Positions 1-29,510 of a stretch of DNA of 29,510 bases are shown here, in pieces. The stretch is from a virus: the IMG/VR virus record IMGVR_UViG_3300025830_000002. One strand, written 5' to 3'. Within the stretch, counting starts at the first letter, position 1. Each line of letters opens with the position of its first letter. The position numbers and the translations under genes are program-made. Under the pieces are notes generated by a model. That model saw only the letters and a list, made by a program, of their open reading frames with translations. It was not told where the DNA came from and ran no database searches.

Positions 1-127
1 CACCATCAATAACGGCCTTACCTTTGTAATCTGGTTGTGTTTCCGTTTTTTTGTAATCGTTTTTAAAGATTGCACCTGTGTTGTTCTTTTGTTCCATAAC
101 TTAATCTATTGTTTTACTTATTATATA
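1..127. repeat. Exact 127-nt copy of the window end (29384..29510): circular-closure overlap or direct terminal repeat
   Basis: Compared base by base: 1..127 equals 29384..29510. On the minus strand, 1..97 repeats the 5' part of the SSB-like CDS (ATG at 97 corresponds to ATG at 29480). Confidence 0.95.
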
Positions 128-229
128 TGCGCTTAACGTCTTTCGTTTACGCCTTGCTTTTTCTTTTAAAAGCTTCTTCTCTTCTTCTGTTACTCTTATT
201 GTAACTATGTCAGTCTTTCGTGTTTTCAT
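101..229 (-). CDS. Small ribbon-helix-helix (CopG/Arc/MobC-like) DNA-binding protein, 42 aa (not in ORF track)
   Basis: Hand translation gives MKTRKTDIVTIRVTEEEKKLLKEKARRKRKTLSAYIISKTID. The pattern is beta-strand (IVTIRVT), helix (EEEKKLLKEKA), then helix (TLSAYII), typical of RHH. It overlaps the exo 3' end by 20 nt and stops 3 nt before the SSB-like ATG. Confidence 0.45.
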   Translation of the reverse strand: MKTRKTDIVTIRVTEEEKKLLKEKARRKRKTLSAYIISKTID

Positions 230-893
230 CTATTAAAGTTTTGTAATATTCTCTACATTCTTTTATCCTGTCGTAGATAGCTTTAACAACGTCTTTATCA
301 TATCTTACTTCAAACGTTTTGATTCGTTTTTCTGTTGGTATATGATCAAAATTGTGTTTGGCTTCTACATCTGATCGCAGTTCTTCTGATTCATCTATTA
401 AATGATTCTTCCAATGTTCACGCCTTACTTCGTCTTCAACGATTTCATCTGGTGTGTTTACTAAACAATATGCAAGAACACTTTTACGTTTGTTACATAA
501 AGCCATATAGCCTTGAAGCTGATAATAGTAATCTTTGTTTGGTATATCTTCAGCAAAGAATGGAAACGTTGTTGCATCATAACTACTTTTTACATCTAAA
601 AGTATACTATCCGTGTTTACGTCTGGAGTGCCTGTTAAAAAACCATTGTTAAAATGTTCTTCGTTTTTATACATCAATCCAAAATCTAATACTTCTTGTG
701 CTAATGAAATACTTTCATCTTCTACAAGGTTGCCTTTGTCTGTGTAACGGCTTGAAAATTCTTTCTTGATTCCGTACATTTCTTCTATTGCCAACTCCTG
801 TAAGTAGGTCTTGCAAGTCTTACTCAATACTTCGGACTTGCTTCTGCTATTGGTCATTATTTTGCCAAGTGCTGAACATCTAATCTTCAACAT
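210..893 (-). CDS. YqaJ/lambda-Exo-type recombination exonuclease (PD-(D/E)XK)
   Basis: 227-aa ORF with motifs ...LTGTPD... and ...LLDVKS... (D...D/E-x-K) plus ...YYYQLQGYM..., characteristic of YqaJ-like viral recombinase exonucleases. It is adjacent to and overlaps the ERF annealase gene. Confidence 0.8.
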   Translation of the reverse strand: MLKIRCSALGKIMTNSRSKSEVLSKTCKTYLQELAIEEMYGIKKEFSSRYTDKGNLVEDESISLAQEVLDFGLMYKNEEHFNNGFLTGTPDVNTDSILLDVKSSYDATTFPFFAEDIPNKDYYYQLQGYMALCNKRKSVLAYCLVNTPDEIVEDEVRREHWKNHLIDESEELRSDVEAKHNFDHIPTEKRIKTFEVRYDKDVVKAIYDRIKECREYYKTLIDENTKD

Positions 894-1447
894 AACTCAA
901 GTGCTTTAACTTGTAAAGGCGATAAATCAAACTCTTCTAACTTGGCTTTGTTTATTTTGCCATCTTGTAAAGCTTTCAATGCGTCTTCAAATCGTTTTTT
1001 AGTTAGCTTCTCTTTCTTTACTTCGTTTTTATTATGCGTATTTGTTGTGTCTGCGTCTTTCGTATCGTCTATTAAAAACAATCCGTTAAGTGCGTACTTT
1101 CTTGCATAACTTGAACTGCTTCCAAATGCTTGTGCGATATCCATTCCTTTTCTATTTGGATCAATTCCTGCTTGTGCTTTTACTGCCTGCATCTTTGTTC
1201 CATCTGTAATCATAGCAGTTGATTCTACATACATATAGCCTGCTGCTTCTTTTACTTCGTCAGTTAGATTTAGTGCCAATCCGTTTAATAGTGGCTTAAC
1301 GGCTTCAAGTATATCTTCACAACTCCTGTACTTGTAGTTTCCAAACTTGTTAAATTGATTCTTTGGTGCTTTTAATTCTTGCTGGATTTTGGCCAGTCTT
1401 CCAATTACTGTGTCTTTCATAACATTATTTATTTTTTGTTTATACAA
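887..1447 (-). CDS. erf: ERF-family single-strand annealing protein
   Basis: 186-aa ORF. The N-terminal segment ...LKAPKNQFNKFGNYKYRSCEDILEAVKPLL... is the hallmark of P22 Erf-like recombinases, and it is paired with an exonuclease. Confidence 0.8.
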   Translation of the reverse strand: MYKQKINNVMKDTVIGRLAKIQQELKAPKNQFNKFGNYKYRSCEDILEAVKPLLNGLALNLTDEVKEAAGYMYVESTAMITDGTKMQAVKAQAGIDPNRKGMDIAQAFGSSSSYARKYALNGLFLIDDTKDADTTNTHNKNEVKKEKLTKKRFEDALKALQDGKINKAKLEEFDLSPLQVKALELC

Positions 1448-1456
1448 ATATAAGTA

Positions 1457-1978
1457 TTATTTATTTAATTCTTTCTTTTTTTGTTTATACATTTCAATAA
1501 TCGCTTTCAATTCTTCTCTTGTATACTTTCTTATCTTGTGTGCTTCTTCGTGTAATTTTATTAGTTCTTCGCCACCTATTCGTTTTTCTATACCTATTTG
1601 GTAGTTTAGTAGGTTTCCGTGTTTGTGTTGGTTACAGGCTACGCATTGACCGTGAACATTATTTTCATCGAAAGTTACGTTCTTGTGGCTTGTACTAAAG
1701 TAGTGACCAGCATCGAATTTACTTCCTAATAGCTTTTCGCAACTTACACAAGGTTTATGCTTATCACGTTCACGAATGTATGCATTAAAGTATACCTGTG
1801 CTTTTTTAGTTAAGCTTTGCACCGTTTCTAATTCGTCTTTTAGTCGCTTCTTTTCTTTCTTCCAGTTCTTTACTTTTGCGGTTTCTACCCATACCTTGAC
1901 ACAATCACTTTTAAAGCAGTACTTCTGATTGAAGTGTTTTACTTCAAACTTTTCTTTGCAGTTTTTACAACGTGGCAT
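1457..1978 (-). CDS. ninG: NinG/Rap-like recombination endonuclease
   Basis: 173 aa with Cys/His clusters CKNC..., PCVSC...DAGH..., HGQCVACNQHKHGN, typical of the lambda NinG (Rap) family. It lies in the recombination module. Confidence 0.75.
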   Translation of the reverse strand: MPRCKNCKEKFEVKHFNQKYCFKSDCVKVWVETAKVKNWKKEKKRLKDELETVQSLTKKAQVYFNAYIRERDKHKPCVSCEKLLGSKFDAGHYFSTSHKNVTFDENNVHGQCVACNQHKHGNLLNYQIGIEKRIGGEELIKLHEEAHKIRKYTREELKAIIEMYKQKKKELNK

Positions 1979-3077
1979 TTAAATTAAATTCTTTTATTAT
2001 TAATTCTAAACAACGTACTACAATACTATTTCCAGCTTGTTTGTATGCTTGACTATCTGAACAAATCCAAGTAAAAGTATCTGGAAAATCCATAAGTCTA
2101 AAACATTCTCTTGGTGTTAATCTTCTTATGTTTTGATTTTCTAAAGTTGCTTGATTGCATTGCGTGTCTAAAGTTTGTGCTACACCTTTACCAACTCTTC
2201 CTCTCCGTGTTTCTGAATTAGGAACACTAAAGTTTATACTATCGCCTTCATTAGCTTTTTCATAACCTTTTTTAGTTGCTGATTTTATTTGTATTGTATT
2301 ATCAGTAGGACACAAAGCTGCATTTGCCCTTAACGTGTTAGCCGTATCATTTTCGTTTTTTGGTTGCCATTTAAATCCTGTTTGTTTTTCTTCGTGTCTT
2401 TCTTTGTGTTTCAAAAAACCGTTTATAATTGTGTGACTTAAAAAATACTTTTCATCTACTTCGTTTTCAAGTACGTCTTTTAGTCGTTTAGTTAAATGCT
2501 CTTCTTTTGCCCATCTAAACGTATTATCTTGATCATCACGAACACCAATTATAAAAACTCTTTCTCTATTTTGTGGAACTCCGTGTTTTTTTGCGTTCAT
2601 TACTTTGTAGTAAATGTGATATGGAACTGAATTTTTATAAGGAAACAATACAGGCAAACCATTTACACTTTTTCCACCTAACATATTTATCCACTCTTTA
2701 AAAGTATTGCCATTATCGTCTGATAATAAACCCTTGACATTTTCAAATATAAAGTATTTTGGTTTGTTCGTTTTTATGAACTCGTGACTATTAAAAAACA
2801 ACACCCCTCTTTTATCGTCTTTGCCTAATCTTTTTCCAGCTAAACTAAAAGCTTGACAAGGAGGAGAAGTCATATAAATATCTAAACTTTCCTTTGGTAT
2901 TTCTCTTTCATATACATCTTTTGGATAATACTTTGGTTCTCCGTAATTATGTATAAATGTTTCTCTTGCATACTTGTCCATATCACAAGCAAAAACCTCA
3001 TCGTATTCTATGCCTAATCTTATTAACGCTTGATTAAATGCACCTACTCCACTAAAATCACTTCCTACCTTTATCAT
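1965..3077 (-). CDS. DNA (cytosine-5)-methyltransferase
   Basis: All canonical C5-MTase motifs are present in order: I DFSGVGAF, IV SPPCQAFS, VI ENVKGL, VIII QNRERVFIIG, IX RRLTPRECFRLMDFPD, X AGNSIVV. Confidence 0.93.
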   Translation of the reverse strand: MIKVGSDFSGVGAFNQALIRLGIEYDEVFACDMDKYARETFIHNYGEPKYYPKDVYEREIPKESLDIYMTSPPCQAFSLAGKRLGKDDKRGVLFFNSHEFIKTNKPKYFIFENVKGLLSDDNGNTFKEWINMLGGKSVNGLPVLFPYKNSVPYHIYYKVMNAKKHGVPQNRERVFIIGVRDDQDNTFRWAKEEHLTKRLKDVLENEVDEKYFLSHTIINGFLKHKERHEEKQTGFKWQPKNENDTANTLRANAALCPTDNTIQIKSATKKGYEKANEGDSINFSVPNSETRRGRVGKGVAQTLDTQCNQATLENQNIRRLTPRECFRLMDFPDTFTWICSDSQAYKQAGNSIVVRCLELIIKEFNLNATL

Positions 3078-3367
3078 ATACCCTCTTTTAAGTTTTCTAC
3101 TAAAATGTTAAGCTTTTCTAATTCGTGTTTTTGTTCACTTATAACCATTTGCAAACGTAAATTACTTTTACATTCTAAAAGATATTGGTCTTCAAACTGC
3201 ATAAACACGGATTGAAAATAGCTGATGTCTTCAAGTGAATCAAGCATAGAATCAATTAAGTCTTTACGTTCTGGATGCTTTGCTTGTAACTCCTCTATAC
3301 TACTTGTGAACTTAATAATAGTTGTTTGTAGGTTTATCTTTGCTTTTAGTATTTCTAAAGTGTCCAT
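3074..3367 (-). CDS. Hypothetical protein (helical/coiled-coil, 97 aa)
   Basis: The ORF fills the gap with ATGA-type overlaps at both ends. I recognise no motif. Confidence 0.5.
   Translation of the reverse strand: MDTLEILKAKINLQTTIIKFTSSIEELQAKHPERKDLIDSMLDSLEDISYFQSVFMQFEDQYLLECKSNLRLQMVISEQKHELEKLNILVENLKEGI
3109..3132 (-). repeat. 24-nt element AAAAACACGAATTAGAAAAGCTTA (copy 1), containing the AAACACGAAT motif
   Basis: It matches 4350..4373 at 23 of 24 positions. It lies inside the 97-aa ORF, 32-55 nt upstream of the C5-MTase ATG (3077). Confidence 0.9.
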
Positions 3368-4272
3368 TATTCGTGTTTTGGTTGTGCGTAAATCTTATTG
3401 TAAACATTCGGCACAGGATTATCTTGTTCATAATATAGAAATTTTTCTTTATCAAACCATAATTCTAATTGGCCTATATTTCCAACTGAACGTGGCTTAA
3501 TCTTATTAAAGTTTATTATTGCTTGATTGTAGCTTAAATCTTCTCTGTGAACGGTAATCATACACTTGCCACTATTAAACCATTCAGAGCCACCTTTTAG
3601 ATCGTATGGGCTTGGCACGTTTCTTTTGCCGTTTATCTTTTCAGTTAGTTTAGGATGAATAATTGTATGTAAGTGTAGATTGTTATCTTCTGCTATTTGG
3701 TTTCTATAAGGAAGTATTACTTCTAAATATTGTGCATAACCTCCATACTCGTTATATGGATGGCTTAAATCTTTCCAACTATCAATACTTGCCGTTTGTA
3801 ATCCGTGTTTTTGTTTAAGTTCTACTGCATAATCATAAAATTCAAACGGTGTTAATTTGGCTTTAACATCATATTTGGTTAGTATTTTAAAGTGTTCAAA
3901 AATCCAATCTAAACTATTTGTTATCTCTTTGTCTTTAATCACGTTGTTATCTAATGGATTAAAACTTTTGCCTGTAAGCTTGTGAATTAAATCTGCAACT
4001 ATTTCAACATTACTACCTACATCTGGAAAGTAAACAAGATGTTTCCATCCGTAAAACTTACTTGTATTAAGTAGGCACTCCATCAATACCTGTGTTTTAC
4101 CACTCATAGGGAAACCTGTCCAATCTGTGCAGTTGCCTAATTGCATAGAATAGAACTCATCCATTCCTTTCCATCCTAAATACTTTCCTTTGTTGTTGTA
4201 ATTATCTCTATGCTTGTATATCTTGTTTAAAATATCTTTTGCTTCTGTTACCTTATAACCTTTCATTGCCAC
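3367..4272 (-). CDS. DnaB/T7-gp4-like (SF4) replicative helicase, ATPase domain only
   Basis: 301 aa with Walker [10 protein letters not shown], a Walker B-like ...[10 protein letters not shown]..., and ...[21 protein letters not shown]... resembling the DnaB H4/arginine-finger region (DLRESG...DAD.v..l.R). Confidence 0.6.
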
Positions 4273-4835
4273 GGTGCTTTAAATCCATTACTACTTTCTA
4301 CTTCTTTTTTTGTTTGTTCTTTCTTCAACCAATTTTTAGCAGTTAAATATAAGCTTTTATAATTCGTGTTTTTCTTGAAGTTTTGGATCGCATCGCATAC
4401 ACCATCAATTTGTTGTTTAGTATAATCTTTTTCTAATTTGTTAAATTCATCTAAAGACATAGACAAATGGGCGAAAGCCCTATATATATCTTTATCATTT
4501 ACATTATCATTAACATTAACATTTACGGCTATGTTTGCCATTTTCTTTTTAGCACTTTTAACAGGTGCTATATTCTGCCATCTTTTATTAGCACCTTTCT
4601 TTCCTGCTTCTCGTTTCTTTTCTCTTATCTGTTCGTATTTTTGTAGATCACGTTTTAAGTTTTGTTTGATCGGCTCAAAACATAAATCTGTTATAATGTC
4701 TTCGGTTTCTGGATTCAAGTCGTTGACGTACTCTAAAACGTGTTTAAATAGCTTTCCTGCCTGTTCATCATTTAACTTCTTGACCGTATGCAATAAGTCG
4801 CAATAAAGTAAAAAGCTTTTTTTATTTTCTGCCAT
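4263..4835 (-). CDS. Replication-associated protein (replisome-organiser / DUF6291-like N-terminus)
   Basis: 190 aa. The N-terminus ...[32 protein letters not shown]... resembles the phage replisome-organiser N-terminal family seen in Bacteroidota phages. It sits directly upstream of the helicase. The central [12 protein letters not shown] linker is encoded by a hexamer array. Confidence 0.45.
4350..4373 (-). repeat. 24-nt element AAAAACACGAATTATAAAAGCTTA (copy 2)
   Basis: It matches 3109..3132 at 23 of 24 positions but lies in a different reading frame (encodes KNTNYKSL here and QKHELEKL in copy 1). It is 78-101 nt upstream of the helicase ATG (4272). Confidence 0.9.
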
Positions 4836-5305: not shown

Positions 5306-6474
5306 AATAAAGATTTTGCTATGTTATAAGTTTGTTCGTTTATTTCAGCAGCTAAAACTTTTCTTTTCTTTTCTTTGGCTGCTATTATAGTTGTACCACT
5401 TCCAGCAAACGGCTCTAAAATTGTATCCATTGGTTTAGTAAACATTTCAATTAAATAAGCTACGCCACTTTTACTTTGTTGCCAGTCGTGTCCGTTTTTT
5501 TCTCTTTGTTCTGAAATAAAATAATCTTGAAAAGTATTTTCTATTTTTTTCTTGCCATTTTGAAATATTAGTACAGGTTTCCATCTACACATTAAATTTA
5601 TTCCATTGACTATTTGCGTTTGTCCCTCGTGATAAACGGCAAACGTCCAATAATAATCTAAATTTTCACTCATTCTTTTCATTACTTCTGGCAAATACAT
5701 TTGTCCACTATATGCAATACAAAAACCATTTGGTTTTAATACACGTTTTGCAAACCTTGAAAGTTTAGTCCATACTTCTATAAATTCATAAGGATAAGGT
5801 GGATCTGTAATTATACAATCTATACTTCCATCTGGCAAGTCTGCAAAAACTTCTTGAAAATCTCCAAGTCTAAAGTCTATTTCTATTTCTTTTTTTGCGC
5901 CTTTTTCTGCTAACCTTTTACGTTCTGCTATTTTTTCTTCTTTCTTTTCTTCTTTCTTTATTTCTTTGTAAGCTGCGTTTATACTTACTTCTCCAGTTGC
6001 AAGTTTTGCTTTTACTTCTTCTGGTGCTTTCTCTTGTATTTTTTTTACTTTAGAAATAGTGTCTTTACCTACATTGGCAACATTTGACAACTTTTCAATA
6101 GTTTTACCCTGTTCTGATTTCGGAACAGGCTTAGCTTGTATCATTCTTTCCTTTGCTTTTTTGCTAAAAACTTCTTCAAGTTCTAAAGCCAAAACACTTC
6201 TTTGATAGTTGCTTAAATTACGTCTTCCAAATTGATTTAATATCATCCATTCTTTTACACTTTCTTCACTTGCAAAATGTTTGCTTGTAGTTCTATACTC
6301 TACATCAAATCGTTGTGCTATACTATAACGATTATGTCCATCTATTATAAATCCATTCCAAGTTATTATAGGCTCTCGTATTCCCTCTTCTAATATGTTT
6401 GCTTCAAGCTGCGCATATTCTTCAGCACTTAATGCTGGTATTAAATTCTTAAATTCTTCTTTTACTTGTATCAT
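5302..6474 (-). CDS. ParB-like N-terminal domain fused to an N6-adenine/N4-cytosine DNA methyltransferase (beta class)
   Basis: ParB/Srx-type motif ...IITWNGFIIDGHNRYSIA..., a K/E-rich linker, catalytic motif IV IITDPPYPY, then SAM motif I LEPFAGSGTT (order IV then I indicates beta class). Confidence 0.88.
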   Translation of the reverse strand: MIQVKEEFKNLIPALSAEEYAQLEANILEEGIREPIITWNGFIIDGHNRYSIAQRFDVEYRTTSKHFASEESVKEWMILNQFGRRNLSNYQRSVLALELEEVFSKKAKERMIQAKPVPKSEQGKTIEKLSNVANVGKDTISKVKKIQEKAPEEVKAKLATGEVSINAAYKEIKKEEKKEEKIAERKRLAEKGAKKEIEIDFRLGDFQEVFADLPDGSIDCIITDPPYPYEFIEVWTKLSRFAKRVLKPNGFCIAYSGQMYLPEVMKRMSENLDYYWTFAVYHEGQTQIVNGINLMCRWKPVLIFQNGKKKIENTFQDYFISEQREKNGHDWQQSKSGVAYLIEMFTKPMDTILEPFAGSGTTIIAAKEKKRKVLAAEINEQTYNIAKSLL

Positions 6475-6848
6475 ATCAATTCTTTATAAAGTTGTTTTTC
6501 TGTTCTTCCTTTTATTATTTGTAAATCTCTAATTGTTGTAGCTTTTAGAATATCCGTTTTTAAATCGTACTTTGTATCATTGATTTTAAACTTGCCATCG
6601 TATTCTGCAATATCCAAAAACATTAACGGATCTTTTGCTTTCTTTAAATTCTTAAAAGTTTTAATTCCGTGTACTATTGTGGCGTGATTTAATCCGAATA
6701 AATCGCCAATACTTTGATAAGTATATCCAGCAGTTCTTAAAACGTTAAAAAAGTATATTCTTTTGTGTACATATTTTCTTTGTCTACAACGTTTTTTTAA
6801 TTCGTCTTTTTCTATGTAGTGCAGTACACTACTCATCAATTCTTCCAT
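6471..6848 (-). CDS. DnaA domain-IV-like helix-turn-helix DNA-binding protein
   Basis: 125 aa. ...RKYVHKRIYFFNVLRTAGYTYQSIGDLFGLNHATIVHGIKTFKNL... parallels the DnaA C-terminal HTH (R..v..R.i.mYl.r......sl..IG..fg.dHsTV.h...k.). Confidence 0.55.
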   Translation of the reverse strand: MEELMSSVLHYIEKDELKKRCRQRKYVHKRIYFFNVLRTAGYTYQSIGDLFGLNHATIVHGIKTFKNLKKAKDPLMFLDIAEYDGKFKINDTKYDLKTDILKATTIRDLQIIKGRTEKQLYKELI

Positions 6849-7133: not shown

Positions 7134-7396
7134 TTGTTTAGTATTTCTTCAAGTTCTTCGCACAAATCTTCTTCGTTATAATAGTTCACACCATCACATC
7201 TTAACGTTTCTTTCTGTACTCTATAATATGTTTCTTCTACTTGTGCGTATGATAGCTTGTCGTTAAAGCTATTGTAGCTATCAAGTTCTTCTATTATTCG
7301 TGTTTCTATAAAAAGTTCCACTTGATATGGTGTTTCGCCTATGTAAAATATTGCACCATCTTGATCGTAATATTCTATTTCTATTTCGTAACTCAT
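7121..7396 (-). CDS. Hypothetical acidic early protein, 91 aa
   Basis: The ORF is in the co-directional array. It shares an ATGA overlap with the upstream small ORF. Confidence 0.5.
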   Translation of the reverse strand: MSYEIEIEYYDQDGAIFYIGETPYQVELFIETRIIEELDSYNSFNDKLSYAQVEETYYRVQKETLRCDGVNYYNEEDLCEELEEILNKWNN

Positions 7397-7491
7397 ACTA
7401 ATAAATTTACTGCTAAATAATAAAACGTAAAGGCAACTGCCATAAACACGAATCCAAATAATAATTCTTTTTTTGCTTCTTTCTCTTTCAT
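7393..7491 (-). CDS. Small single-pass membrane protein, 32 aa (not in ORF track)
   Basis: Hand translation gives MKEKEAKKELLFGFVFMAVAFTFYYLAVNLLV. The charged N-terminus is followed by one hydrophobic helix. Its TGA overlaps the downstream ATG (ATGA), and it starts 7 nt after the upstream stop. Confidence 0.4.
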   Translation of the reverse strand: MKEKEAKKELLFGFVFMAVAFTFYYLAVNLLV

Positions 7492-7717: not shown

Positions 7718-7839
7718 AACTTTAATTAAATTGTATACACAAATATATACATTATTAACAATATATAACGACTTATTAACAAAAAAAGTTACAATTATTT
7801 TTTAGTTGTTTAAAAATCAATAAGTTACAAAGGTGTTGT
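7718..7839 (-). promoter_or_regulatory. Early-region promoter/operator region
   Basis: This is one of the largest non-coding gaps. The minus strand carries TATATTTG (plus 7743..7750), matching TAnnTTTG, 25 nt before the ATG at 7717. Direct repeats ttattaacaa (7753..7762 and 7774..7783, 21 bp apart) and aagttacaa (7786..7794 and 7822..7830) are present. Confidence 0.4.
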
Positions 7840-8712: not shown

Positions 8713-9131
8713 ATTATCTTACTTATTAGCTTATTTAAAACAAACATAACTGCACCAAACACTAAAGCAAATATTAACATCCACCAATAGTTTGGTTTCT
8801 TATTGGCTTTGGCTTCTGCTTTTGCCCTTTGCACTTCTACTCTTGTAATCATTCTTAAAGTGTCACGTTTTAGCTTGTATTCTATTCGTGTTTCTAACCT
8901 TGTTTGTGGCACATATACGGTCTTGTATTCTATAATAGTATCTTTAGAACTATAAAAGTGTTCGTATACTATTGTATCGTGTTTTATTACAGGAATAGAA
9001 TCTATTGTGCTAATTCTTATCGTGTCGCTTGTTTGCGTGACTTGTAAGCCACGTTTAAGTGCTTTGTTATAGTGATACTTCGCAGAACACGAAAACAACG
9101 TTAGAACGCAAATTAAATATATTACTTTCAT
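8709..9131 (-). CDS. Unimolecular spanin candidate (N-terminal lipoprotein signal plus C-terminal transmembrane anchor)
   Basis: MKVIYLICVLTLFSC... has a lipobox-like LFSC, and the C-terminus YWWMLIFALVFGAVMFVLNKLI forms a TM helix. It sits immediately downstream of the endolysin with a 4-nt overlap, the same architecture as T1 gp11. Confidence 0.55.
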   Translation of the reverse strand: MKVIYLICVLTLFSCSAKYHYNKALKRGLQVTQTSDTIRISTIDSIPVIKHDTIVYEHFYSSKDTIIEYKTVYVPQTRLETRIEYKLKRDTLRMITRVEVQRAKAEAKANKKPNYWWMLIFALVFGAVMFVLNKLISKII

Positions 9132-10677: not shown

Positions 10678-11526
10678 TTATGTAGGTACATCTGTGCTTC
10701 GTACTACCGTGTTATCTAATACTCCATCATTTCCACCTGTTCCACTATCTATAGCAGTTGTTCCTGTTCCCTCAAAACGCCACCAAGAAACAGGCGATAG
10801 ACTACTAATGTCATTAGGAACTCCATTGTTGTATATAGTTTCTATGTCAGTTGAACTTAAGGCACTACTGAAATAGGAAACCTCGTCTACTAATCCATCA
10901 AAATAATTTTGGTCTAAATCAGATGTAAAAATTCTGCCTATGTTTATAGTGTCAAAACTTGCCATATCGTTTAACCATTTTTGGTCATTAGTAGACACCA
11001 AAAAAGTCTGTGCTACTGCCACTCCATCAACATATAATTGTGGACTTACTCCATTTTGTACTATTGCTAAATGCGTCCAAGCTCCAACGCTAAAAGGATT
11101 TACATTAGCATAAACAATAAATCCTGATGATGAGTTAGACGTTGTACGCATATCAATAGTAAAACCAAGTGATGAACTTAAGTTTAAAATTAAATATTGC
11201 CTTGTTTGTGTGGATGCACTAAAATTTAATATTGTTTGATTACTTGAAATATCATTAGGGTTTACCCATACAGAAATTGTTCCCTCATTATCTGCACTAA
11301 TAGAACTTGCAGCACTGTTACAATCAACATAGGCATCCATTCCATCAAGCTCTATACTTTGAGTATTGCTAAAACTTGGCGTTGCACCTGTTCCTGTTAA
11401 GTTGGTTTCTGGACTCAAACTATTTGCGCAAACTTCGCCAAAATCTATAGTATTATTTGTTGCTGATTTTCCGAATCCATTCGTGTTTTCAACTGCTGCC
11501 TGTCCCCAATATATCGTATTTGCCAT
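10678..11526 (-). CDS. LamG/concanavalin-A-like lectin domain protein (tail fibre-associated, candidate receptor-binding)
   Basis: ...GTISVWVNPNDISSNQTILNF..., ...WTHLAIVQNGVSPQLYVDGV..., ...NIGR...YFDGLVDEVSYFSSALSSTDIETIYNNG... matches the Laminin_G_3 pattern. It follows the tail fibre gene. Confidence 0.75.
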   Translation of the reverse strand: MANTIYWGQAAVENTNGFGKSATNNTIDFGEVCANSLSPETNLTGTGATPSFSNTQSIELDGMDAYVDCNSAASSISADNEGTISVWVNPNDISSNQTILNFSASTQTRQYLILNLSSSLGFTIDMRTTSNSSSGFIVYANVNPFSVGAWTHLAIVQNGVSPQLYVDGVAVAQTFLVSTNDQKWLNDMASFDTINIGRIFTSDLDQNYFDGLVDEVSYFSSALSSTDIETIYNNGVPNDISSLSPVSWWRFEGTGTTAIDSGTGGNDGVLDNTVVRSTDVPT

Positions 11527-14723: not shown

Positions 14724-15066
14724 AAATAATAAATTCGTTGTTACTGACGTTTGAAGTAAATTCTCCGTCATTTACTGAATAGTTTACAACAGGCGTTTGA
14801 TCCGTTACAAAGATTCTATCCTTGTGTACTATCGTTGTTCCGTTTTTTAGTTCCAAAGTGTAAAAAGTATTGTTTACTAAATTGAATAAGCCATTAACAA
14901 AAGTTGCGTTTATTGTATCGTAGTAATCTCCATTTGCAAAACTTGTTATTGTTATTTCAGTTGTTACGTTTGTAGATTCTCCTGTGATATATAACGTGTC
15001 ATAAGTTTGGCTTCTTGGTATAAAGCTAAAACTTTGTTCTGTTGCTATCGGTTGTAAAATAATCAT
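14716..15066 (-). CDS. Hypothetical structural protein, 116 aa (beta-rich)
   Basis: The ORF is preceded by the conserved 13-mer AAAAGTTATTATA and an AAACACGAAT motif. No motif recognised in the protein. Confidence 0.5.
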   Translation of the reverse strand: MIILQPIATEQSFSFIPRSQTYDTLYITGESTNVTTEITITSFANGDYYDTINATFVNGLFNLVNNTFYTLELKNGTTIVHKDRIFVTDQTPVVNYSVNDGEFTSNVSNNEFIIYE

Positions 15067-15072
15067 ATCTAC

Positions 15073-15085
15073 TATAATAACTTTT
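15073..15085 (-). repeat. 13-mer AAAAGTTATTATA, copy 1, ending 6 nt before the ATG at 15066
   Basis: Exact 13-mer, also found at 18587..18599 and 26536..26548, each just upstream of a start codon. Confidence 0.9.
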
Positions 15086-15123
15086 TTTTAAATATTTTGT
15101 TTTTAATTCGTGTTTATGTAAAC

Positions 15124-17416: not shown

Positions 17417-17442
17417 AGCTTATTTAATTATTCGTGTTTATC

Positions 17443-17805
17443 TTATAATAGTTTTTTAGCATCTGCCAAATCTTTTTTAGCTGAATCAACAATAAAAAGT
17501 GCTTCTTTATATTCTTTTACGCTATCTGGCGTTAAACCTAAATCTTTTGCAGCTTTGGCGAAAGCTTTTGCCTCTTTATTTGCAGCACTTCTTATTGATT
17601 CAATATTTTTAATAGAATTTGAATAATCTTGTTTTGCCTTAAAAAATGCATTTCTTTTTTTAAAATTAGATTCCAATTCTTTATCTAAAGCGCTTATCGA
17701 TTTTTTTAAATCTGCCACACTTGCAAGTTCTACTTTTTCAGAAGCTAATTCCGTTTTTTTGTCATCTTTTGCCCAGTCAGCAAAAATCTTATTTAGTCGT
17801 TCCAT
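17443..17805 (-). CDS. Hypothetical helical head-module protein, 120 aa
   Basis: K/A/E-rich coiled-coil-like ORF between the protease and the scaffold. Confidence 0.5.
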   Translation of the reverse strand: MERLNKIFADWAKDDKKTELASEKVELASVADLKKSISALDKELESNFKKRNAFFKAKQDYSNSIKNIESIRSAANKEAKAFAKAAKDLGLTPDSVKEYKEALFIVDSAKKDLADAKKLL

Positions 17806-17847
17806 ACTATATTAACTTTATTTTAAATTGTTTGTTGCATTTTTGGA

Positions 17848-17988: not shown

Positions 17989-18584
17989 TTCAATAGGTCT
18001 TTTAGTTTGTTTATTGTTTCCGTTTTTTTATCGTCTTTACTCATATCGTATCTGTCTGCAAAATAACCTTCAATACTAAATCCTTTTATTTCGCCAGACT
18101 TTGCTTTGTCGTATAGTTCTTGATCGTCTATCTTTGCCGATACCATCCAAGTGCCTACAGGTACATCTAAGCCATATAAAGCCGTTTTGTCTTTCTTGCT
18201 ATCTTCTACTATCCAACTTTCAACGATTGTAACGCCATCAATTTTATTTTCGTGTTCAAAGGTTGCGTTTTTATGATTCGATTTTTTAAAGAATAATTCA
18301 CTTGCCTGTCGTACCGTGTTTTTAGAAAAGTAAATATAGTATTCGTCGCCTTTGTCGTTTCTTCTGTAAATACTTTTATCTGGAATAAGTGCAGCACCCA
18401 TTAAAATTTTCTTTTCTGCGTTAATCTCTTTTAGATATAGTTCGTGTTTTTGTTTAGAAAGTGCGATGAAGTTGGATTCAATCGCAGGAGTTTCTACTAA
18501 AGAAATTGCGTCTATTCCACTTTGTTCATCGTTTGGATCAATTATAAGTTCTACGATTTTAAATGTTTTTGATTCACTGCTCAT
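17985..18584 (-). CDS. XkdF-like prohead protease-family protein
   Basis: 199 aa. ...IDAISLVETPAIESNF..., ...FEHENKIDGVTIVESWIV..., ...GEIKGFSIEG... parallels the PBSX XkdF (Peptidase_S78_2) family. It lies in the head module. Confidence 0.6.
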   Translation of the reverse strand: MSSESKTFKIVELIIDPNDEQSGIDAISLVETPAIESNFIALSKQKHELYLKEINAEKKILMGAALIPDKSIYRRNDKGDEYYIYFSKNTVRQASELFFKKSNHKNATFEHENKIDGVTIVESWIVEDSKKDKTALYGLDVPVGTWMVSAKIDDQELYDKAKSGEIKGFSIEGYFADRYDMSKDDKKTETINKLKDLLK

Positions 18585-18586
18585 AT

Positions 18587-18599
18587 TATAATAACTTTT
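18587..18599 (-). repeat. 13-mer AAAAGTTATTATA, copy 2, ending 2 nt before the ATG at 18584
   Basis: Exact 13-mer shared with 15073..15085 and 26536..26548. Confidence 0.9.
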
Positions 18600-18605
18600 A
18601 TTTGT

Positions 18606-21098
18606 TTATAGTGTTGCATTTTGTACTCTGTTTCTGTCAAGTGCTTGGCTTGTCGTTACTTCTCCACTAACTACAAAAGCTTGTACAGGTTGTTGTTGTA
18701 ATTGTGCTATTTGATTTATTCCACTATCTCCAACAACGTTAAAATTAGGTGCTGCTGATTCGTCTATATTTGGCGTAGGTGTGTCAGCAGGATCGCCAGT
18801 TGATTCAAATTTAGTAGAAGCAATTTTCGCAATATTTACGGCAGACGTTGTAGCTGCAAACGCAAGAGATGCTATACCAGCAGGATTAGGAACAGGCCCA
18901 ATAGCAATAGGAGCAGAAGCAAGAGAAGCTGTAATTGCCTTACCTGCATCTATAATAGCACCCCCTAACTGCATCGCTTTGTTAAACTTAAATTGTTTTC
19001 TTGCAAGTTCTTCTTCTTCCTTACTTCCCTCTTCAAGTTTAGCCATTTTATTAGAAAAAACTAAATCGCCAATTTGTTGAATTGCGTCTGCACCTTGTTG
19101 CGCATATTCTAAACCTTTTTGTATTGCTTCAAGTCTTGCTTGTCTTTCGGATTCTATTAAGTCTTTTTGTTTATCTGATGCCTCTTTGTCTTTGGCCAAC
19201 TTTTCTAATCTAAATTGATCTTCTATTGCAGCTTGATCTATTAAAAATTGTGCTTCTAATTGTTTTGTAAGTTCTGCATTATCTTGTGCAAGTAAATACT
19301 TTGCTTCATAACTTTGTGACAAAGCAATTATTTCTGCCATTTGCCTGTCTTTCATTAAGTCAAGTTCTAACTGAAATAAAGCATCTTCTTTATCTATTCT
19401 TTCTTGATTTGCTTTAGCTTTTTCTTCATCAATTTTTTTGTTTTTCTCTTTTTCTAAATCAACGTACTTTTTATTAATTACTTTTTGTTGTGCAAGTTCT
19501 TGCTTGTCATAAAGGTCTTTTAACGCTGCTCTTTCTTTTGCAGTTAGCTTCGTGTTTTTCTTGGCATCCTCTTGTAGTCTTCTAAACTTGTCTCTATTGA
19601 TTTCAAGGTCTTTCTCTATTCCGTCCTTTAGTAAAGAGTTCTCAAGGTCTTCTATTTTTCTGGCAGTGTTTAATCTATCTTCTTGTTTTTGTTTTAATTT
19701 GTCTGCATTATCCTTTACTTCTTCAGCGTCAAAAATTTCTAAATCTTTTTGTAAAGATTCAACGTCACCTTTAGTAGTTGTTATCCATTTCTTAGTCTCT
19801 TTATTCCTAAATTCATTTAATCTTTTATTTGATGCTTCTAATTGTCTTTCAATCTCAAATGTATGGGTATACATATTTACACGAGCATTTCTTAAAATTT
19901 GGGATTCTACAACAGATAAATCAGACCTATCTTTTATACCCTCAGCCTCTATTTTTTGTATTACTTTTTGTGCCTTCTTTTTTGCATCTATTCTTTTTTG
20001 AATACTATCAATAGTATCTCTAGTTTCTTCTTCAAATTTATCCTTGTCGTCTTTTGCGTTTTTTTCAGCATCAGCTATTGCGTCTGTTATTATTTTTCGT
20101 TCTGCTTCTCTTGTTTCTTCACCCTTTGCTTTTGCTAAAGCAATTTCTTTTTGTGCTAATTTTCGTTTTAACTCATATTCTTTATTTAGCCTGTCTTTTT
20201 TATCATTCCATCTATCTTCGTCTGCTTTTGCTTCTTCTTCACGTCTTTTAGCATCTGCTTTTTCTTGTTCTGCATTTTTGCCCTGAGCTATACCTAATGC
20301 TTTTAGACCTTTTTGAAATACTTTAACCGTGGCGATTAAAGGAGCGAAAGAAATCATTAGTGCCTTTGTTAATAAGCCACCCTCCTTAAAGCCTTTGTTT
20401 ACATCTGTTAATACTTCTTTAACCTTGTCAAAATTTGCCACGAGTAAACCAATACCTACAACTAAAGCACCCACACCTGTACTAATAAGTGCTGCTCTAA
20501 ACAACTTTAATCCTGTTGTTGCACCACCAGTAACAAAAGTAAATGCTGCTTGTCCTGCTGCTGCCAATTTACTACCTATTGATAATTCTCTGTAAGCTTC
20601 TGTAAGACCTTGTACTCCTTGCTGTATAGCTAATGCAGATTGAACTTTTAAAAGTGATTCTTCAAGTGCTTGGTTCTCATCTCCAAACAAAGCCATAGCA
20701 CCTTGTGTAGCTGCAAAGCCACTTGTAGCACCATTTAACGCACTACCTAACTTTTGCGTCATTGTAGTCGCTGCGCCATCTACTGCTAAATCCGTTTGTA
20801 TTTGAACTTTACGATATTCTCCTACTTTGGTTAATAGTTCTTGATATTCTTGTGAAGCCGTATCTCCTGCAAGTGCTAATTCATAAAGACGATCTTCTGC
20901 TTCGCCCATTCGTGTAGTAAGTGGCTCTATGGCATCTCCATATCTTTTAGCAAATGTTGCTCCTGTATCAAACGATTCATTTACCTGCTCGTTTGCTTTT
21001 GCAGTTTCGTCTAACGAATCATTTAAATTATCAAAATCTTTTGCCGTTTTATCAGCATTGTTTTTGATGTTTACGTTTATAGTTCTTGTTTCAGCCAT
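18606..21098 (-). CDS. Tape measure-like protein
   Basis: This is the longest ORF (830 aa). Gly/Ala-rich hydrophobic segments at both ends (...LISTGVGALVVGIGLLV..., ...APIAIGPVPNPAGIASLAFAA...) flank a K/E-rich coiled coil of about 450 aa. No enzymatic motif recognised. Confidence 0.6.
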   Translation of the reverse strand: MAETRTINVNIKNNADKTAKDFDNLNDSLDETAKANEQVNESFDTGATFAKRYGDAIEPLTTRMGEAEDRLYELALAGDTASQEYQELLTKVGEYRKVQIQTDLAVDGAATTMTQKLGSALNGATSGFAATQGAMALFGDENQALEESLLKVQSALAIQQGVQGLTEAYRELSIGSKLAAAGQAAFTFVTGGATTGLKLFRAALISTGVGALVVGIGLLVANFDKVKEVLTDVNKGFKEGGLLTKALMISFAPLIATVKVFQKGLKALGIAQGKNAEQEKADAKRREEEAKADEDRWNDKKDRLNKEYELKRKLAQKEIALAKAKGEETREAERKIITDAIADAEKNAKDDKDKFEEETRDTIDSIQKRIDAKKKAQKVIQKIEAEGIKDRSDLSVVESQILRNARVNMYTHTFEIERQLEASNKRLNEFRNKETKKWITTTKGDVESLQKDLEIFDAEEVKDNADKLKQKQEDRLNTARKIEDLENSLLKDGIEKDLEINRDKFRRLQEDAKKNTKLTAKERAALKDLYDKQELAQQKVINKKYVDLEKEKNKKIDEEKAKANQERIDKEDALFQLELDLMKDRQMAEIIALSQSYEAKYLLAQDNAELTKQLEAQFLIDQAAIEDQFRLEKLAKDKEASDKQKDLIESERQARLEAIQKGLEYAQQGADAIQQIGDLVFSNKMAKLEEGSKEEEELARKQFKFNKAMQLGGAIIDAGKAITASLASAPIAIGPVPNPAGIASLAFAATTSAVNIAKIASTKFESTGDPADTPTPNIDESAAPNFNVVGDSGINQIAQLQQQPVQAFVVSGEVTTSQALDRNRVQNATL

Positions 21099-26045: not shown

Positions 26046-26533
26046 AAAAAAACACTTGCACTTATTGCAACATCTAAAGGCGCAAACTTCATCAAGTCCT
26101 GCATATCTTCGTTTGGCTCGTATTCTATTATAGAATACTTGTCTTTGTGCTTTTCTTTTATCGGCCTAAACATTACTGCCATTGCCTTGTGATATGTACT
26201 CCAATCTTTTAAGTGATGTTCTAAATCAACATATTCTCCGAAGCTGATGTTTTCCAGATTAGGAATAAATCCAAATTCTATGTTTTTTATTTTAAAGTTT
26301 CGTATTAGTTGTGGCTTTTCACTAAACACTTCTGTAAAGTGCTTGATTAATCCGTTTAAATCTTTTAGTTTAATCTTTGCAACTTCTCCTAATTGTAAGC
26401 CACAAAATATCTGTATCATTTTATTTGCAATCAGTTCTTCGTCGTTACTCTTTTCTTTCATAGCTACAAACTCTTGATACCTTGATAGTGGTATTTCAGA
26501 TAGTGAATTTGGCAGCAGTATATCTAACTTCAT
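25793..26533 (-). CDS. Tail assembly chaperone-like protein, zero-frame product (246 aa)
   Basis: ...ISFGEYVDLEHHLKDWSTYHKAMAVMFRPI... resembles tail-assembly-chaperone families. It contains the slippery run G-UUU-UUU-UUG at codons 161-164. Confidence 0.55.
   Translation of the reverse strand: MKLDILLPNSLSEIPLSRYQEFVAMKEKSNDEELIANKMIQIFCGLQLGEVAKIKLKDLNGLIKHFTEVFSEKPQLIRNFKIKNIEFGFIPNLENISFGEYVDLEHHLKDWSTYHKAMAVMFRPIKEKHKDKYSIIEYEPNEDMQDLMKFAPLDVAISASVFFWSLGSELLQATLTYLKNELMKTKDLTNFQKEFSLANNGVGIQVYMDSLATTLQNLTQLQNTDLLNVSHIYLSSNKKTKLKAVN
26044..26052 (-). other. Slippery homopolymer (U9 on mRNA; U UUU UUU heptamer in the zero frame) for -1 frameshifting or transcriptional slippage
   Basis: The plus strand has A9 at 26044..26052. 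The zero frame reads GUU UUU UUU UGG, and the -1 frame continues UUG GAG UUU AGG.... Confidence 0.6.
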
Positions 26534-26535
26534 AA

Positions 26536-26548
26536 TATAATAACTTTT
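26536..26548 (-). repeat. 13-mer AAAAGTTATTATA, copy 3, ending 2 nt before the ATG at 26533
   Basis: Exact 13-mer shared with 15073..15085 and 18587..18599. An AAACACGAA motif (26551..26559) lies directly upstream. Confidence 0.9.
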
Positions 26549-26566
26549 TTTTCGTGTTTTTGTACT

Positions 26567-27727
26567 TTACAGAATATTATAACTTCCGTAATTCTTATTC
26601 ATTCCTAACGTTTCCATCTCGTGATAACGTACTGCATCTATTGCGTGATTGAAATTATCTACAGGTTTGTTTAAACGTTTTCCTGTCTTGTCTGTGTCCC
26701 AGCAATAACTCCTTAATTCTTTAATTAGGCTGGTGCTATTAGAAGTAACTAAATAGTTTTCACGTTGCATAACATCAATACCGTAGTTTATAGAGTCCCT
26801 GCCCTTTGTTACTCCTTTTATTGTTATGCCATACCGTTGTATATCTGCTATACTTTTTGGCTCTGCTGAATCTGCATAACACGGCACGTTGCTTGGAAGT
26901 ATTTTTGCTATGTCGCTATTTAATAATCCTGTTTGATAGGTTACTTCGTTTAGTATTCGTGTTTCGTTATGTTTGTACACTTCAATAATACTTGTAGGGT
27001 CGTTTGTATATCCAAAGTCAATTCCTATGCCTATCAATCTTGCTTCGTCTGGTATTGTATCAATCTGTTTCCAATTACTAAATACAACGCCCTCTAATTG
27101 CCCCATCTCGCCATCTACATAAACACGTACCCAGTTCTTCCAATAGTTGCTTGTAGCTGCTTTCTTTATGTTCTTTTCTATCTGGCTTATGATTCCGTTA
27201 TCAAGTGCTTCGTTGTCTTTGTAAGTAAGTATTATCTTTTCTGCATCTTCTTGGTCTTCTATTTCTGTTTGTACCCAAAATTCAGCAGTTGGATTGTAAT
27301 CAAGAAATACTTCGTTTTTTGTACGTATTGAAAGTTCGTTGTAAGATTCAAAGCTTACACTATTGCACTCGTTTATGTAAAGTATTGTACGTCTACCACC
27401 ACGAAGTTTACTTGAATCGTCTGCACTAAAAAATTCTATAAAACTGCCGTTTGCAAATTCGTATTTTAGTAGTGACTTGTTAAATCTGTCATCTACAAAC
27501 CTGTTGATAGATTTCATAATCTTTACAAAATCTCTTAAAGCACCTCTTCTCAAGTGTGGAATAGATTCAGATACAACGCTTATTTCTGTGTTAGGTGTTT
27601 TGGCTGCACGGTCTATTAAGATAGGAAGTATGCCGTATGTCTTTCCTGCTGATGTTCCACCTTGAACTATCTTAATCCGTTTTTTTAACGCAAGTATTTT
27701 ATTTATTGCCGTTGTTCTTTGAAACAT
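26567..27727 (-). CDS. terL: Terminase large subunit
   Basis: 386 aa with Walker A VQGGTSAGKTYG, a Walker B-like ...RTILYINE..., and a C-terminal RNaseH-like nuclease region (...GIGIDFGYTNDPT..., ...YADSAEP..., ...HAIDAVRY...). Confidence 0.88.
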   Translation of the reverse strand: MFQRTTAINKILALKKRIKIVQGGTSAGKTYGILPILIDRAAKTPNTEISVVSESIPHLRRGALRDFVKIMKSINRFVDDRFNKSLLKYEFANGSFIEFFSADDSSKLRGGRRTILYINECNSVSFESYNELSIRTKNEVFLDYNPTAEFWVQTEIEDQEDAEKIILTYKDNEALDNGIISQIEKNIKKAATSNYWKNWVRVYVDGEMGQLEGVVFSNWKQIDTIPDEARLIGIGIDFGYTNDPTSIIEVYKHNETRILNEVTYQTGLLNSDIAKILPSNVPCYADSAEPKSIADIQRYGITIKGVTKGRDSINYGIDVMQRENYLVTSNSTSLIKELRSYCWDTDKTGKRLNKPVDNFNHAIDAVRYHEMETLGMNKNYGSYNIL

Positions 27728-28134: not shown

Positions 28135-28566
28135 TTAATCTTCGTAAGTTTCGTATACTTTTTTAATTCTGTTGTTTATATCTCTTAAACAACTTGCACA
28201 CGTTGTATATTGTTGTTTAGTTCTGAATACTCTATTGTAAATTACTAATAAATCACGTTGTTCACTTGGCTTCATTCTATTGCTATCTTTTGAAAACCAT
28301 TCTTTTAAATATTCGTATTCGTCTTTTTGTAGGCACTCGGCTTTAAATCTTCTTGGAAATAATGCGTTTAATTTTTCTTTACGTTCTTCACATCCACAGT
28401 CATCTCCTGCCAACCATTTAATAGCTTTCTTTATTCCTGTCGCTTCTGTTACCTTTTCGATAACGTCGCCTAAACCCTCAACAGGTTGCTGCTTCTTCCA
28501 GTCTTTGTATTCTTTAGATCGTTTATCTAATCCTAAATAATATTCTTCGTTTTTTTCCATAATCAA
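28135..28566 (-). CDS. Hypothetical Cys-containing protein, 143 aa
   Basis: Contains ...GLGDVIEKVTEATGIKKAIKWLAGDDCGCEERKEKLNALFP... and ...CASC.... I cannot assign a family. Confidence 0.5.
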   Translation of the reverse strand: MIMEKNEEYYLGLDKRSKEYKDWKKQQPVEGLGDVIEKVTEATGIKKAIKWLAGDDCGCEERKEKLNALFPRRFKAECLQKDEYEYLKEWFSKDSNRMKPSEQRDLLVIYNRVFRTKQQYTTCASCLRDINNRIKKVYETYED

Positions 28567-29096
28567 ATTAATTCGTAATCTTCGTTTTTATAGTCTTCGT
28601 AATCTTCATTCAGATTTTCTTTTAGTTTTCCTTTGCAGTATTTTATTGTTTGAAATATACTACTTGTACTTATTCGTGTTTCATCAGCAAGTTCACGCAT
28701 TGACATACCACTATCAAAATAGTGTTTAAATAACATCTCATCGTACCAATGCCACGTTTCTGCTTCTTCTTTTACTCGTTTAATTAAACCACTAAAGGCT
28801 TCTTCTTTTGAAATATAATCATAAGTTACGCCAATATCTTTACGTTCTTCTATATTAACCATCTGGTGCTTGTTTCGTTCCTTTGTCAAATCTTTAAATA
28901 TGTTTCTTAAAGTAAAGTGTATGTATGCACGGTTAAGTGTTCCGTTTTTTTGTATAACCTTTTCCCTGTCTGCATACTTGTGTAATCTTATGTACATTTC
29001 TTGAACTATATCTTCTGCGTAGAAGTCTTCTCCGTAGCTTTGTACGATTCTTAAATAGTCAGCGTGAAATTTAGCAACTTCTTTTAACCAGTTCAT
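28563..29096 (-). CDS. Sigma-70 family (ECF-like, regions 2 and 4 only) RNA polymerase sigma factor candidate
   Basis: 177 aa. ...AEDIVQEMYIRLHKY...NRAYIHFTLRNIFKDLTK... is region-2-like. The C-terminal HTH ...MSMRELADETRISTSSIFQTIKYCKGKLKENL is region-4.2-like. Confidence 0.55.
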   Translation of the reverse strand: MNWLKEVAKFHADYLRIVQSYGEDFYAEDIVQEMYIRLHKYADREKVIQKNGTLNRAYIHFTLRNIFKDLTKERNKHQMVNIEERKDIGVTYDYISKEEAFSGLIKRVKEEAETWHWYDEMLFKHYFDSGMSMRELADETRISTSSIFQTIKYCKGKLKENLNEDYEDYKNEDYELI

Positions 29097-29111: not shown

Positions 29112-29119
29112 CAAATGTA
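29112..29119 (-). promoter_or_regulatory. Candidate Bacteroidota-type -7 promoter box TACATTTG (TAnnTTTG)
   Basis: It lies in the 126-nt gap after the SSB terminator, 15 nt upstream of the sigma-like gene ATG (29096). I see no clear -33 TTTG. Confidence 0.3.
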
Positions 29120-29222: not shown

Positions 29223-29480
29223 CTAAAAAGGCAGATCGTCTAAATCTGATCGTTGTGCATCGTGCTTCGCGTCTTCGTTGCCACCAGCTTCAACTTCTGC
29301 TTGGTACGGCTTACTAAACTTTGCACTAAAATACTTTACTCCACTTTTACTTTCGTTTAGCCATAGTGCCACTTCTTTTTCTACACCATCAATAACGGCC
29401 TTACCTTTGTAATCTGGTTGTGTTTCCGTTTTTTTGTAATCGTTTTTAAAGATTGCACCTGTGTTGTTCTTTTGTTCCAT
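29223..29480 (-). CDS. Miniature SSB-like protein (DUF736-like OB core plus acidic SSB C-terminal tip), 85 aa
   Basis: The C-terminus ...RSDLDDLPF matches the conserved bacterial SSB tip (DDDIPF/DDDLPF). The core ...TGAIFKNDYKKTETQPDYKGKAVIDGVEKEVALWLNESKSGVKYFSAKFSKP... parallels the DUF736 pattern. It sits next to the Erf/Exo/NinG module across the circular junction. Confidence 0.55.
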   Translation of the reverse strand: MEQKNNTGAIFKNDYKKTETQPDYKGKAVIDGVEKEVALWLNESKSGVKYFSAKFSKPYQAEVEAGGNEDAKHDAQRSDLDDLPF

Positions 29481-29510
29481 AACTTAATCTATTGTTTTAC
29501 TTATTATATA
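29384..29510. repeat. Exact 127-nt copy of the window start (1..127)
   Basis: See the feature at 1..127. Confidence 0.95.

Follow-up and report, generated by a model that had tools for sequence, protein, structure and literature searches.

A near-identical pair of 24-nt elements in a phage genome as members of a dispersed, selected, sense-strand word

The replication module and its 24-nt pair

We analysed a virus record of 29,510 nt (IMG/VR record IMGVR_UViG_3300025830_000002, hereafter the window) and, within it, a 24-nt element that occurs twice in the replication and recombination module, inside two unrelated genes. An exact 127-nt terminal direct repeat stands at both ends of the window (1-127 = 29384-29510), so that the window represents a circularly closed or terminally redundant, complete phage genome of 29,383 bp. 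All of its genes are on the minus strand (40% A), referred to below as the coding strand. A sigma-70-like protein of 177 aa is encoded at the head of the structural genes. Neither a repressor nor an integrase was recognised among the window proteins with Pfam and PHROGs, several small open reading frames (ORFs) having no family match. The genes of the module and the two copies of the 24-mer are the following.

210-893, minus strand, exonuclease
887-1447, minus strand, Erf
1457-1978, minus strand, NinG
1965-3077, minus strand, C5-methyltransferase, with its ATG at 3077
3074-3367, minus strand, 97-aa ORF
3109..3132, minus strand, copy 1 of the 24-mer, AAAAACACGAATTAGAAAAGCTTA, in the 97-aa ORF, frame 0, QKHELEKL
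3367-4266, minus strand, VirE/D5-type helicase-like protein
4263-4835, minus strand, DUF6291 replisome-organiser-like protein
4350..4373, minus strand, copy 2 of the 24-mer, AAAAACACGAATTATAAAAGCTTA, in the DUF6291 organiser-like ORF, frame 2, KNTNYKSL

In agreement with the initial annotation of this DNA, we found that the two copies are identical at 23/24 positions on the coding strand and are read in different frames of unrelated genes (CAA AAA CAC GAA TTA GAA AAG CTT in copy 1; AAA AAC ACG AAT TAT AAA AGC TTA in copy 2), so that their similarity does not come from protein homology. They are the only pair of 24-mers in the genome with one mismatch or fewer, and such a pair was seen in 0.7% of genomes simulated with a third-order Markov (Markov-3) model. 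Copy 1 ends 31 nt before the methyltransferase ATG. The 78-101 nt first given between copy 2 and the helicase hold for a GTG start at 4272, whereas the likelier start, an ATG at 4266 that overlaps the upstream stop codon as ATGA, places copy 2 at 84-107 nt.

Relatives of this phage are common in IMG/VR, with 386 retrieved by a helicase search and at least 542 by a search with the sigma-like protein. The closest isolated phages are Nonlabens phages P12024S and P12024L, with a portal identity of only 34.5%, and no isolated phage matched the window at the DNA level. Near-identical contigs of ~30 kb are present in a Flavobacteriaceae metagenome-assembled genome (MAG; G001, the nearest MAG).

A selected word in the 5' half of the 24-mer

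Both copies share AAAAACACGAAT on the coding strand, in frames 0 and 2, and both extend the 10-mer AAACACGAAT, as the initial annotation had recognised. This core is the most over-represented 10-mer of the unique genome, with 10 exact coding-strand copies against 0.37 expected (z = 15.8). Its heptamer AAACACG occurs 30 times on the coding strand of the window, against 7.8 copies expected, and 3 times on the other strand, and the excess persists against a third-order Markov model. These sites are distributed over all three frames (9/7/11, plus 3 intergenic) and over early, lysis and structural genes. The element had first been taken for a site of the replication module; with 30 copies genome-wide, structural genes included, its core is not confined to that module. 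The consensus of the word reads (c-n-a-c-a-a)AAACACG(A/G)A(T), and its density is ~1 per kb across the genome. Even spacing was considered and rejected, since the coefficient of variation showed no consistent regularity (0.67-0.99, near the ~0.95 of random placement). The individual sites referred to below are these.

3121..3130, minus strand, 10-mer core AAACACGAAT in copy 1
4362..4371, minus strand, 10-mer core AAACACGAAT in copy 2
3369..3378, minus strand, exact core between the 24-mers, in the last helicase codons and 1 nt before the ATG of the 97-aa ORF, without the AAGCT extension
3801..3810, minus strand, core variant AAACACGGAT between the 24-mers, within the helicase, kept in most relatives including 4/6 G004-type loci
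17430..17439, minus strand, exact core in a 26-nt gap upstream of a 211-aa structural gene, with the deepest conservation of all intergenic sites, kept in G005, G006 and G007
15106..15115, minus strand, exact core directly after the sole strong intrinsic terminator (15153-15126), 39 nt before an ATG at 15066
8884..8893, minus strand, exact core within a 140-aa ORF, frame 1, ETRI, kept in G005, G006 and G007
28672..28681, minus strand, exact core within the sigma-like gene, frame 1, ETRI
26955-26964, 11479-11488 and 7296-7305, minus strand, further exact cores

Codon choice revealed selection on the nucleotides themselves. Among the peptides capable of encoding the word, K-H-(G..) spells it in 9/9 cases, where codon usage predicts 4.4, [KEQ]-T-R in 7/13 (1.6 expected) and x-N-T in 11/55 (2.5 expected). 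This spelling draws on otherwise minor codons, such as ACG and CGA, and amounts to a synonymous preference of 2- to 4-fold per frame; the same excess was repeated in G006 and was absent from the motif-free G004. Conservation gave a concordant picture, the core sites being kept ~2.5 times better than other 7-mers. In G006, at alignments of ~73% identity, 12/25 window sites were retained exactly (48%), compared with 18% of all 7-mers (p = 6e-4) and 22% of A-rich CG-containing 7-mers (p = 4e-3), and in G007 6/20 sites were retained (30%) against 12-15% for control 7-mers. As G006 has 31 sites, only 12 of which are common to the window, the density is maintained while positions turn over. The core word is thus maintained by nucleotide-level selection.

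The word belongs to the phage lineage and not to the host. In 764 kb of relatives, AAACACGAA was counted 402 times on the coding strand and 63 times on the other. The 3.6-Mb main contig of the nearest MAG contains 14 copies of the 10-mer, about the chance level, versus 9-10 copies per 30-kb phage-like contig, and the 8-mer shows neither enrichment nor skew in that chromosome. The 9-mer did not rise above a reversed-word control in any of 151 Flavobacteriaceae genera (one genome each), and mostly it was the control that exceeded the word. A host-wide signal was therefore rejected for the nearest MAG and these 151 genera. The more distant phages G004, G003 and P12024S are without the word.

Only the 5' ~12 nt of the 24-mer belong to the selected word, the 3' 12 nt being ordinary coding sequence (L-E-K-L in copy 1, Y-K-S-L in copy 2). 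We assembled 182 independent AAACACG contexts from the window, 86 helicase loci and five genomes, with orthologous copies collapsed. A weight matrix built on these non-orthologous sites is informative only at positions -7 to +8; the 3' 12 nt, TAnAAAAGCTTA, carry no information, and AAAAGCTTA, at positions +12 to +21, is at background. We also compared the two copies with each other in the 48 relatives' loci in which both sites are ungapped. In 46 of them the identity was 13-21/24, and 23 was reached only by the window and one other locus. Within the near clade the core agrees at 11-12/12 positions between the copies and the extension at 7-10/12, and among relatives of 90-94% identity the extension drifts synonymously or conservatively (GAA AAG CTT, GAT AAG TTA, GAT AAA TTA). 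Homologous phages, whose conservation of the element the initial annotation had made one measure of its function, hence do not keep the 24-mer as such, whereas they do keep its core.

The two sites also differ in their history. At copy 1 the core AAACACGAA (K-H-E) is kept in G005, G006, G007 and most of the 48 relatives, and from these alignments is judged to be old, while the 3' half varies (GATAAGTTA, GATAAATTA, GAAAAGCTA, GACAAGCTA). At copy 2 the core was confined to the near clade and loci of the L029 type. Relatives of the G006/G007 type read AACAATAAGAAATACAAATCG there (NNKKYKS), with CAATAAG or AAATAAG in place of the core; distant relatives encode N-N-K-K-Y-K-S-L as AAC AAT AAG AAA TAC AAA TCG TTA, again without it. 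Conversely, G004-type loci have the extension without the core (AAAAATACAAATTATAAAAGTTTA; TAT AAA AGT TTA, reading AATACAAAT). Judging from these alternative codons, the Y-K-S-L of copy 2 is a constraint on the protein. The two sites are not found wherever the downstream genes are present: relatives at ~75% identity, and those of the G006/G007 type, lack the core of copy 2 and still have the helicase directly downstream. The weaker AAGCT-bearing relatives of the element that had been pointed out at 17430 and 8884 do exist, but their AAGCT stands 8 and 7 nt after the 10-mer, against 5 nt in both 24-mer copies.

Several further observations concern the word and its relatives. The sole exact plus-strand copy of the 10-mer (7444-7453) lies in an unannotated 32-aa ORF (7393-7491, minus strand, MKEKEAKKELLFGFVFMAVAFTFYYLAVNLLV) that fills an apparent intergenic gap. 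Its product combines a charged N-terminus with a single hydrophobic helix, the stop codon of the ORF overlaps the next ATG as ATGA, and the ORF is kept in relatives with synonymous changes. A phage small RNA whose seed would be an anti-motif transcribed from 7444-7453 was rejected, as the site consists of the F-V-F codons of this membrane peptide read backwards. Relative L136 (IMGVR_UViG_3300024581_003596; G+C 29%) has almost the same early gene set and a sigma-like protein 55% identical to that of the window, with 1 AAACACG in 20.5 kb, and offers a natural contrast for what maintains the word. The sister lineages L158, L160, L161, L165 and L171 carry AAAGACGAA beside AAACACG, at 9-13 copies per 14-20 kb locus and 0-1 on the other strand; L158, L160, L165 and L171 have 10-13 copies each. 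This may be the same word in another dialect; as ~60% of its copies are frame-0 K-D-E codons, coding may account for part of its excess. The heptamer AAGACGA was rejected as a comparable signal word because, in the window as in G006/G007, it falls mostly in one frame (frame 1), on E/K-D-D/E acidic codons. A literature search gave no relevant description of a strand-specific motif in Flavobacteria phages.

In the nearest MAG, contigs C13 and C23 are two separate genome-length (~30 kb) relatives of the window phage. The MAG also holds smaller motif-bearing contigs (C22, C17, C4, C20), and no phage contig is integrated; these contigs may be lytic co-binned DNA or may reflect extrachromosomal carriage. 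In L033-L038, G003 and G004, the helicase together with the 3' portion of the organiser gene is 90% identical to window 3367-4524 in protein and 83-84% identical in DNA. The structural proteins of G003/G004 are only 26-55% identical to those of the window, and the homology of this lineage stops exactly at the helicase stop codon, from which we deduce that the module moved horizontally.

Readings of the word and of the long match

We favour the interpretation that the two 24-mers are members of a dispersed, selected, sense-strand word. We are confident of its descriptive part, namely that the 5' ~12 nt are the word, that the 3' 12 nt are coding, that selection acts on the nucleotides and that the word is the phage's and not the host's; the statement as a whole, mechanism included, is in our judgement somewhat more probable than its negation. 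The word would be an asymmetric binding site for a lineage-specific protein, orientation-dependent along the single direction of transcription, and once bound would serve as a roadblock, a pause site or an operator in the way of mycobacteriophage stoperators. We put such a stoperator-like mechanism forward tentatively, as rather less likely than not. Recognition of the sense strand itself, as mRNA or as displaced single-stranded DNA, is about as likely as the binding-site reading. In the broader formulation, AAACACG(A/G)A, with AAAGACGAA as its dialect in sister phages, would be an undescribed genome-wide, orientation-specific word of a large family of uncultured marine Flavobacteriaceae phages, read by a phage factor and under selection powerful enough to alter the choice of codons and even of peptides, with the two copies as ordinary members; to this we give about even chances. 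Nothing in the data sets copies 1 and 2 apart as serving the methyltransferase or the helicase in particular. Of the regulatory site proposed at the outset, the nucleotide-level signal is borne out by codon choice and conservation, while a 24-nt site serving these two genes is not, and annotation of the 24-mer as a promoter or operator is not warranted.

A number of observations weigh against the interpretation we favour. No reader of the word was identified among the genes compared; the foremost candidates in the window would be a DnaA-C-like HTH protein (6471-6848), the sigma-like protein (28563-29096), an 85-aa SSB-like protein (29223-29480) and the small ORFs that match no family. Co-variation with the phage sigma factor was rejected, as sigma identity does not predict the word: across 47 loci recovered together with an alignable sigma protein, the word occurs at identities of 45-100%, is absent from L136 (55%) and several others, and reaches 13.8 per 10 kb in L149 at 49%. 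An association with gene presence or absence was rejected likewise, because no gene tracks the word and L136 has a nearly full gene set and no motif. Motif-bearing relatives provided no opposite-strand genes for an orientation test; all their genes lie on one strand, so that the polarities of transcription, replication and packaging are inseparable. In the window 27/30 AAACACG sites lie within genes, unlike stoperators. The long match is also unusual. The extension agrees at 11/12 positions between the copies, which is improbable under a random-flank null: when 11-17 cores were planted with real genomic flanks, a 24-nt window with one mismatch or fewer arose in 0.3-0.8% of trials. In addition, AAGCT occurs 10-21 nt after the core start at 9/182 sites against ~3.9 expected (~2-fold, p = 0.018). 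We nevertheless read the long match as a coincidence helped by A-rich codons, because, rare as it is for one genome, it is not reproduced in relatives. It carries a caution, in that a selected short word beside similarly spelt codons can give long near-identical matches between unrelated genes.

The same rarity of the match, even with the core granted, and the mild AAGCT enrichment speak for the full 24-mer as a discrete bipartite regulatory site (an internal promoter, an operator, or a signal for RNA processing or translation) ahead of the methyltransferase and helicase, as does the position of both copies within ~110 nt upstream of a gene start. We consider this unlikely. The extension drifts among relatives of 90-94% identity and the core does not, the helicase persists downstream in relatives without the core of copy 2, positions beyond +8 hold no information across the 182 sites, and the AAGCT spacing varies (5, 7, 8 nt). 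Sites within 130 nt upstream of gene starts numbered 10/28, 12/28 and 12/31, a ~2-fold enrichment (p = 0.005-0.03), the others being spread along genes.

Promoter and RNA searches pointed in the same direction. The Bacteroidota sigma-A promoter (-33 TTTG / -7 TAnnTTTG) was found at neither 24-mer copy. Host-type TAnnTTTG boxes stand in true intergenic gaps at 29119, 7747, 4938 and 1452, and TAnnTTT(G/A) boxes follow core sites no more often than expected (6/182 against 6.7). A sigma-70 promoter scan was discarded because its promoter-like matches were at shuffle level. No box follows copy 1, and TACGTTTG, upstream at 3159, is without a TTG 17-23 nt upstream. Copy 2 is followed, 10 nt on, by TATATTTA, a 7/8 match to the box that likewise lacks a TTG at this distance. 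This box favours a bipartite site, as does the -7-type box TATATTTG that many relatives have in its place; as a candidate -7 box, however, TATATTTA forms part of conserved L-Y-L-T codons and lacks a -33 TTG. The predicted RNA structure around four sites was not significant (folding z-scores +1.37, -0.30, -1.43 and -0.80), the word being unpaired or weakly paired in the predicted folds, and Rfam gave no match in the window.

Three side results arose from these searches. TATATTTA lies at 4342-4349 on the minus strand, in the organiser gene and ~75 nt before the helicase ATG, and its Tyr codon is always TAT; the TATATTTG of relatives equals the -7-type boxes of the gaps at 7747, 4938 and 1452. 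From sequence resemblance, TATATTTA/TATATTTG may be an internal -7 box and a helicase promoter independent of the 24-mer. GAGGG was rejected as a Shine-Dalgarno sequence, almost all its occurrences being in-frame E-G codons. A family of ~31 nt (ACAAA...AAAAGTTATTATAGTA) on the minus strand (15070-15100, 17805-17835, 18584-18614 and 26533-26563) ends 0-5 nt before four structural-module ATGs, two of its copies having AAACACGAA just upstream. With the start codon this near, the family cannot be a promoter; it may be a Shine-Dalgarno-free translation initiation region.

Quite improbable, in our estimate, is a core directed at the host, either as a Chi-like protector against an exonuclease or as a one-strand orientation that evades a Type III-like enzyme needing head-to-head sites. 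The strict strand asymmetry (30 to 3) would fit, as would the common direction of all genes and, probably, of replication and packaging. Precedents exist in T7, where all 36 EcoP15I sites are in one orientation, and in Chi, which protects rolling-circle DNA, and motif-free relatives with the same gene set, such as L136, may infect other hosts. The lack of enrichment in the nearest MAG chromosome and in the 151 Flavobacteriaceae genera counts against it, and evasion by orientation explains the absence from one strand, not the 4- to 27-fold excess on the other or the codon-level selection.

Short-patch templated copying (ectopic gene conversion) of ~20 nt around copy 1 into the organiser gene of a near-clade ancestor is very unlikely. 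As we read the aligned variants, the change from AATAAGAAATACAAATCGTTA in distant copies 2 to AACACGAATTATAAAAGCTTA in the near clade takes 7 substitutions, 6 of them to the base of copy 1 and including a switch of serine codon family from TCG to AGC, and the phage encodes Erf, an exonuclease and NinG. However, 3/6 converging changes are explained by core selection alone, the polarity of the change is unrooted, and the flanks of the two copies share no homology that could guide annealing. Moreover, the G004-type loci, which have an AGT serine codon and the extension but no core, imply that the halves did not arrive together. The word as a marker of recombination junctions was also rejected, given that homology breakpoints against G005 coincide with gene borders and only 2-3 lie near the motif.

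Least credible of all is a functionless core that results from amino-acid, codon-pair or mutational bias on a strand that is 40% A and in which the related A-rich ACG words AAAAACGAA and AAAGACGAA are also frequent (AAGACGA mostly in one frame), since the word is found in every frame as well as outside genes, exceeds the third-order Markov expectation, is spelt with minor codons at a 2- to 4-fold synonymous preference, is conserved above matched A-rich CG-containing 7-mers, and is missing from sister phages of similar composition (P12024S, G004, L136).

Comparison with known oriented words

A widespread family of marine Flavobacteriaceae phages keeps a one-strand word at ~1/kb against codon preference; neither host-family genomes nor sister phages of almost identical gene content are enriched in it. 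Closest in behaviour are the stoperators of Cluster A mycobacteriophages (L5 gp71-type), of which we do not claim membership. Both consist of many scattered copies of a short asymmetric word with a lineage-specific consensus, and in both the orientation is tied to transcription, as reflected here by the ratios of 30 to 3 in the window and 402 to 63 in relatives. Stoperators are 13-mers located in promoters and short intergenic spaces and read by the monomeric repressor of a temperate phage (PMC9283540). In contrast, only 3/30 sites of the phage word are intergenic, and no repressor, integrase or binding protein was recognised in the window.

Other known words share some of its features. DNA uptake sequences (Neisseria DUS, Pasteurellaceae USS) are 9-12-nt words that occur at ~1/kb within genes, in all frames, bending codon and peptide choice. 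The phage word resembles them in length class, density, use of all frames and codon bending, but they are genome-wide in the host and on both strands, whereas it is limited to one lineage and one strand and is not enriched in 151 host-family genomes. With Chi (RecBCD/AddAB) the phage word shares its short length, orientation, over-representation and a possible protection of linear or rolling-circle ends. Chi, however, is set by a host enzyme and shows enrichment and skew in the host chromosome, which we did not find for the phage word in the nearest MAG or the 151 Flavobacteriaceae genera.

The T4 late promoter TATAAATA, used with gp55, offers a parallel in its phage sigma-like protein and its single 8-10-nt sense element, partly located in upstream genes. 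The density of the phage word is too high for such a promoter, most of its sites are hundreds of nt from starts, and sigma similarity does not track it; in addition, no transcript could start between the site at 3369-3378 and the ATG that follows after only 1 nt. The nick-site motifs of T5, tf and phiKMV-like phages are also conserved one-strand words dispersed over the genome, although they number from a handful to about a dozen, whereas the window phage has more sites and no recognised nicking enzyme. Stoperators, Chi, uptake sequences and nick sites each marked a specific molecular machine, and the reader of the phage word, once found, would reveal a regulatory or replication mechanism in the little-known Bacteroidota phages.

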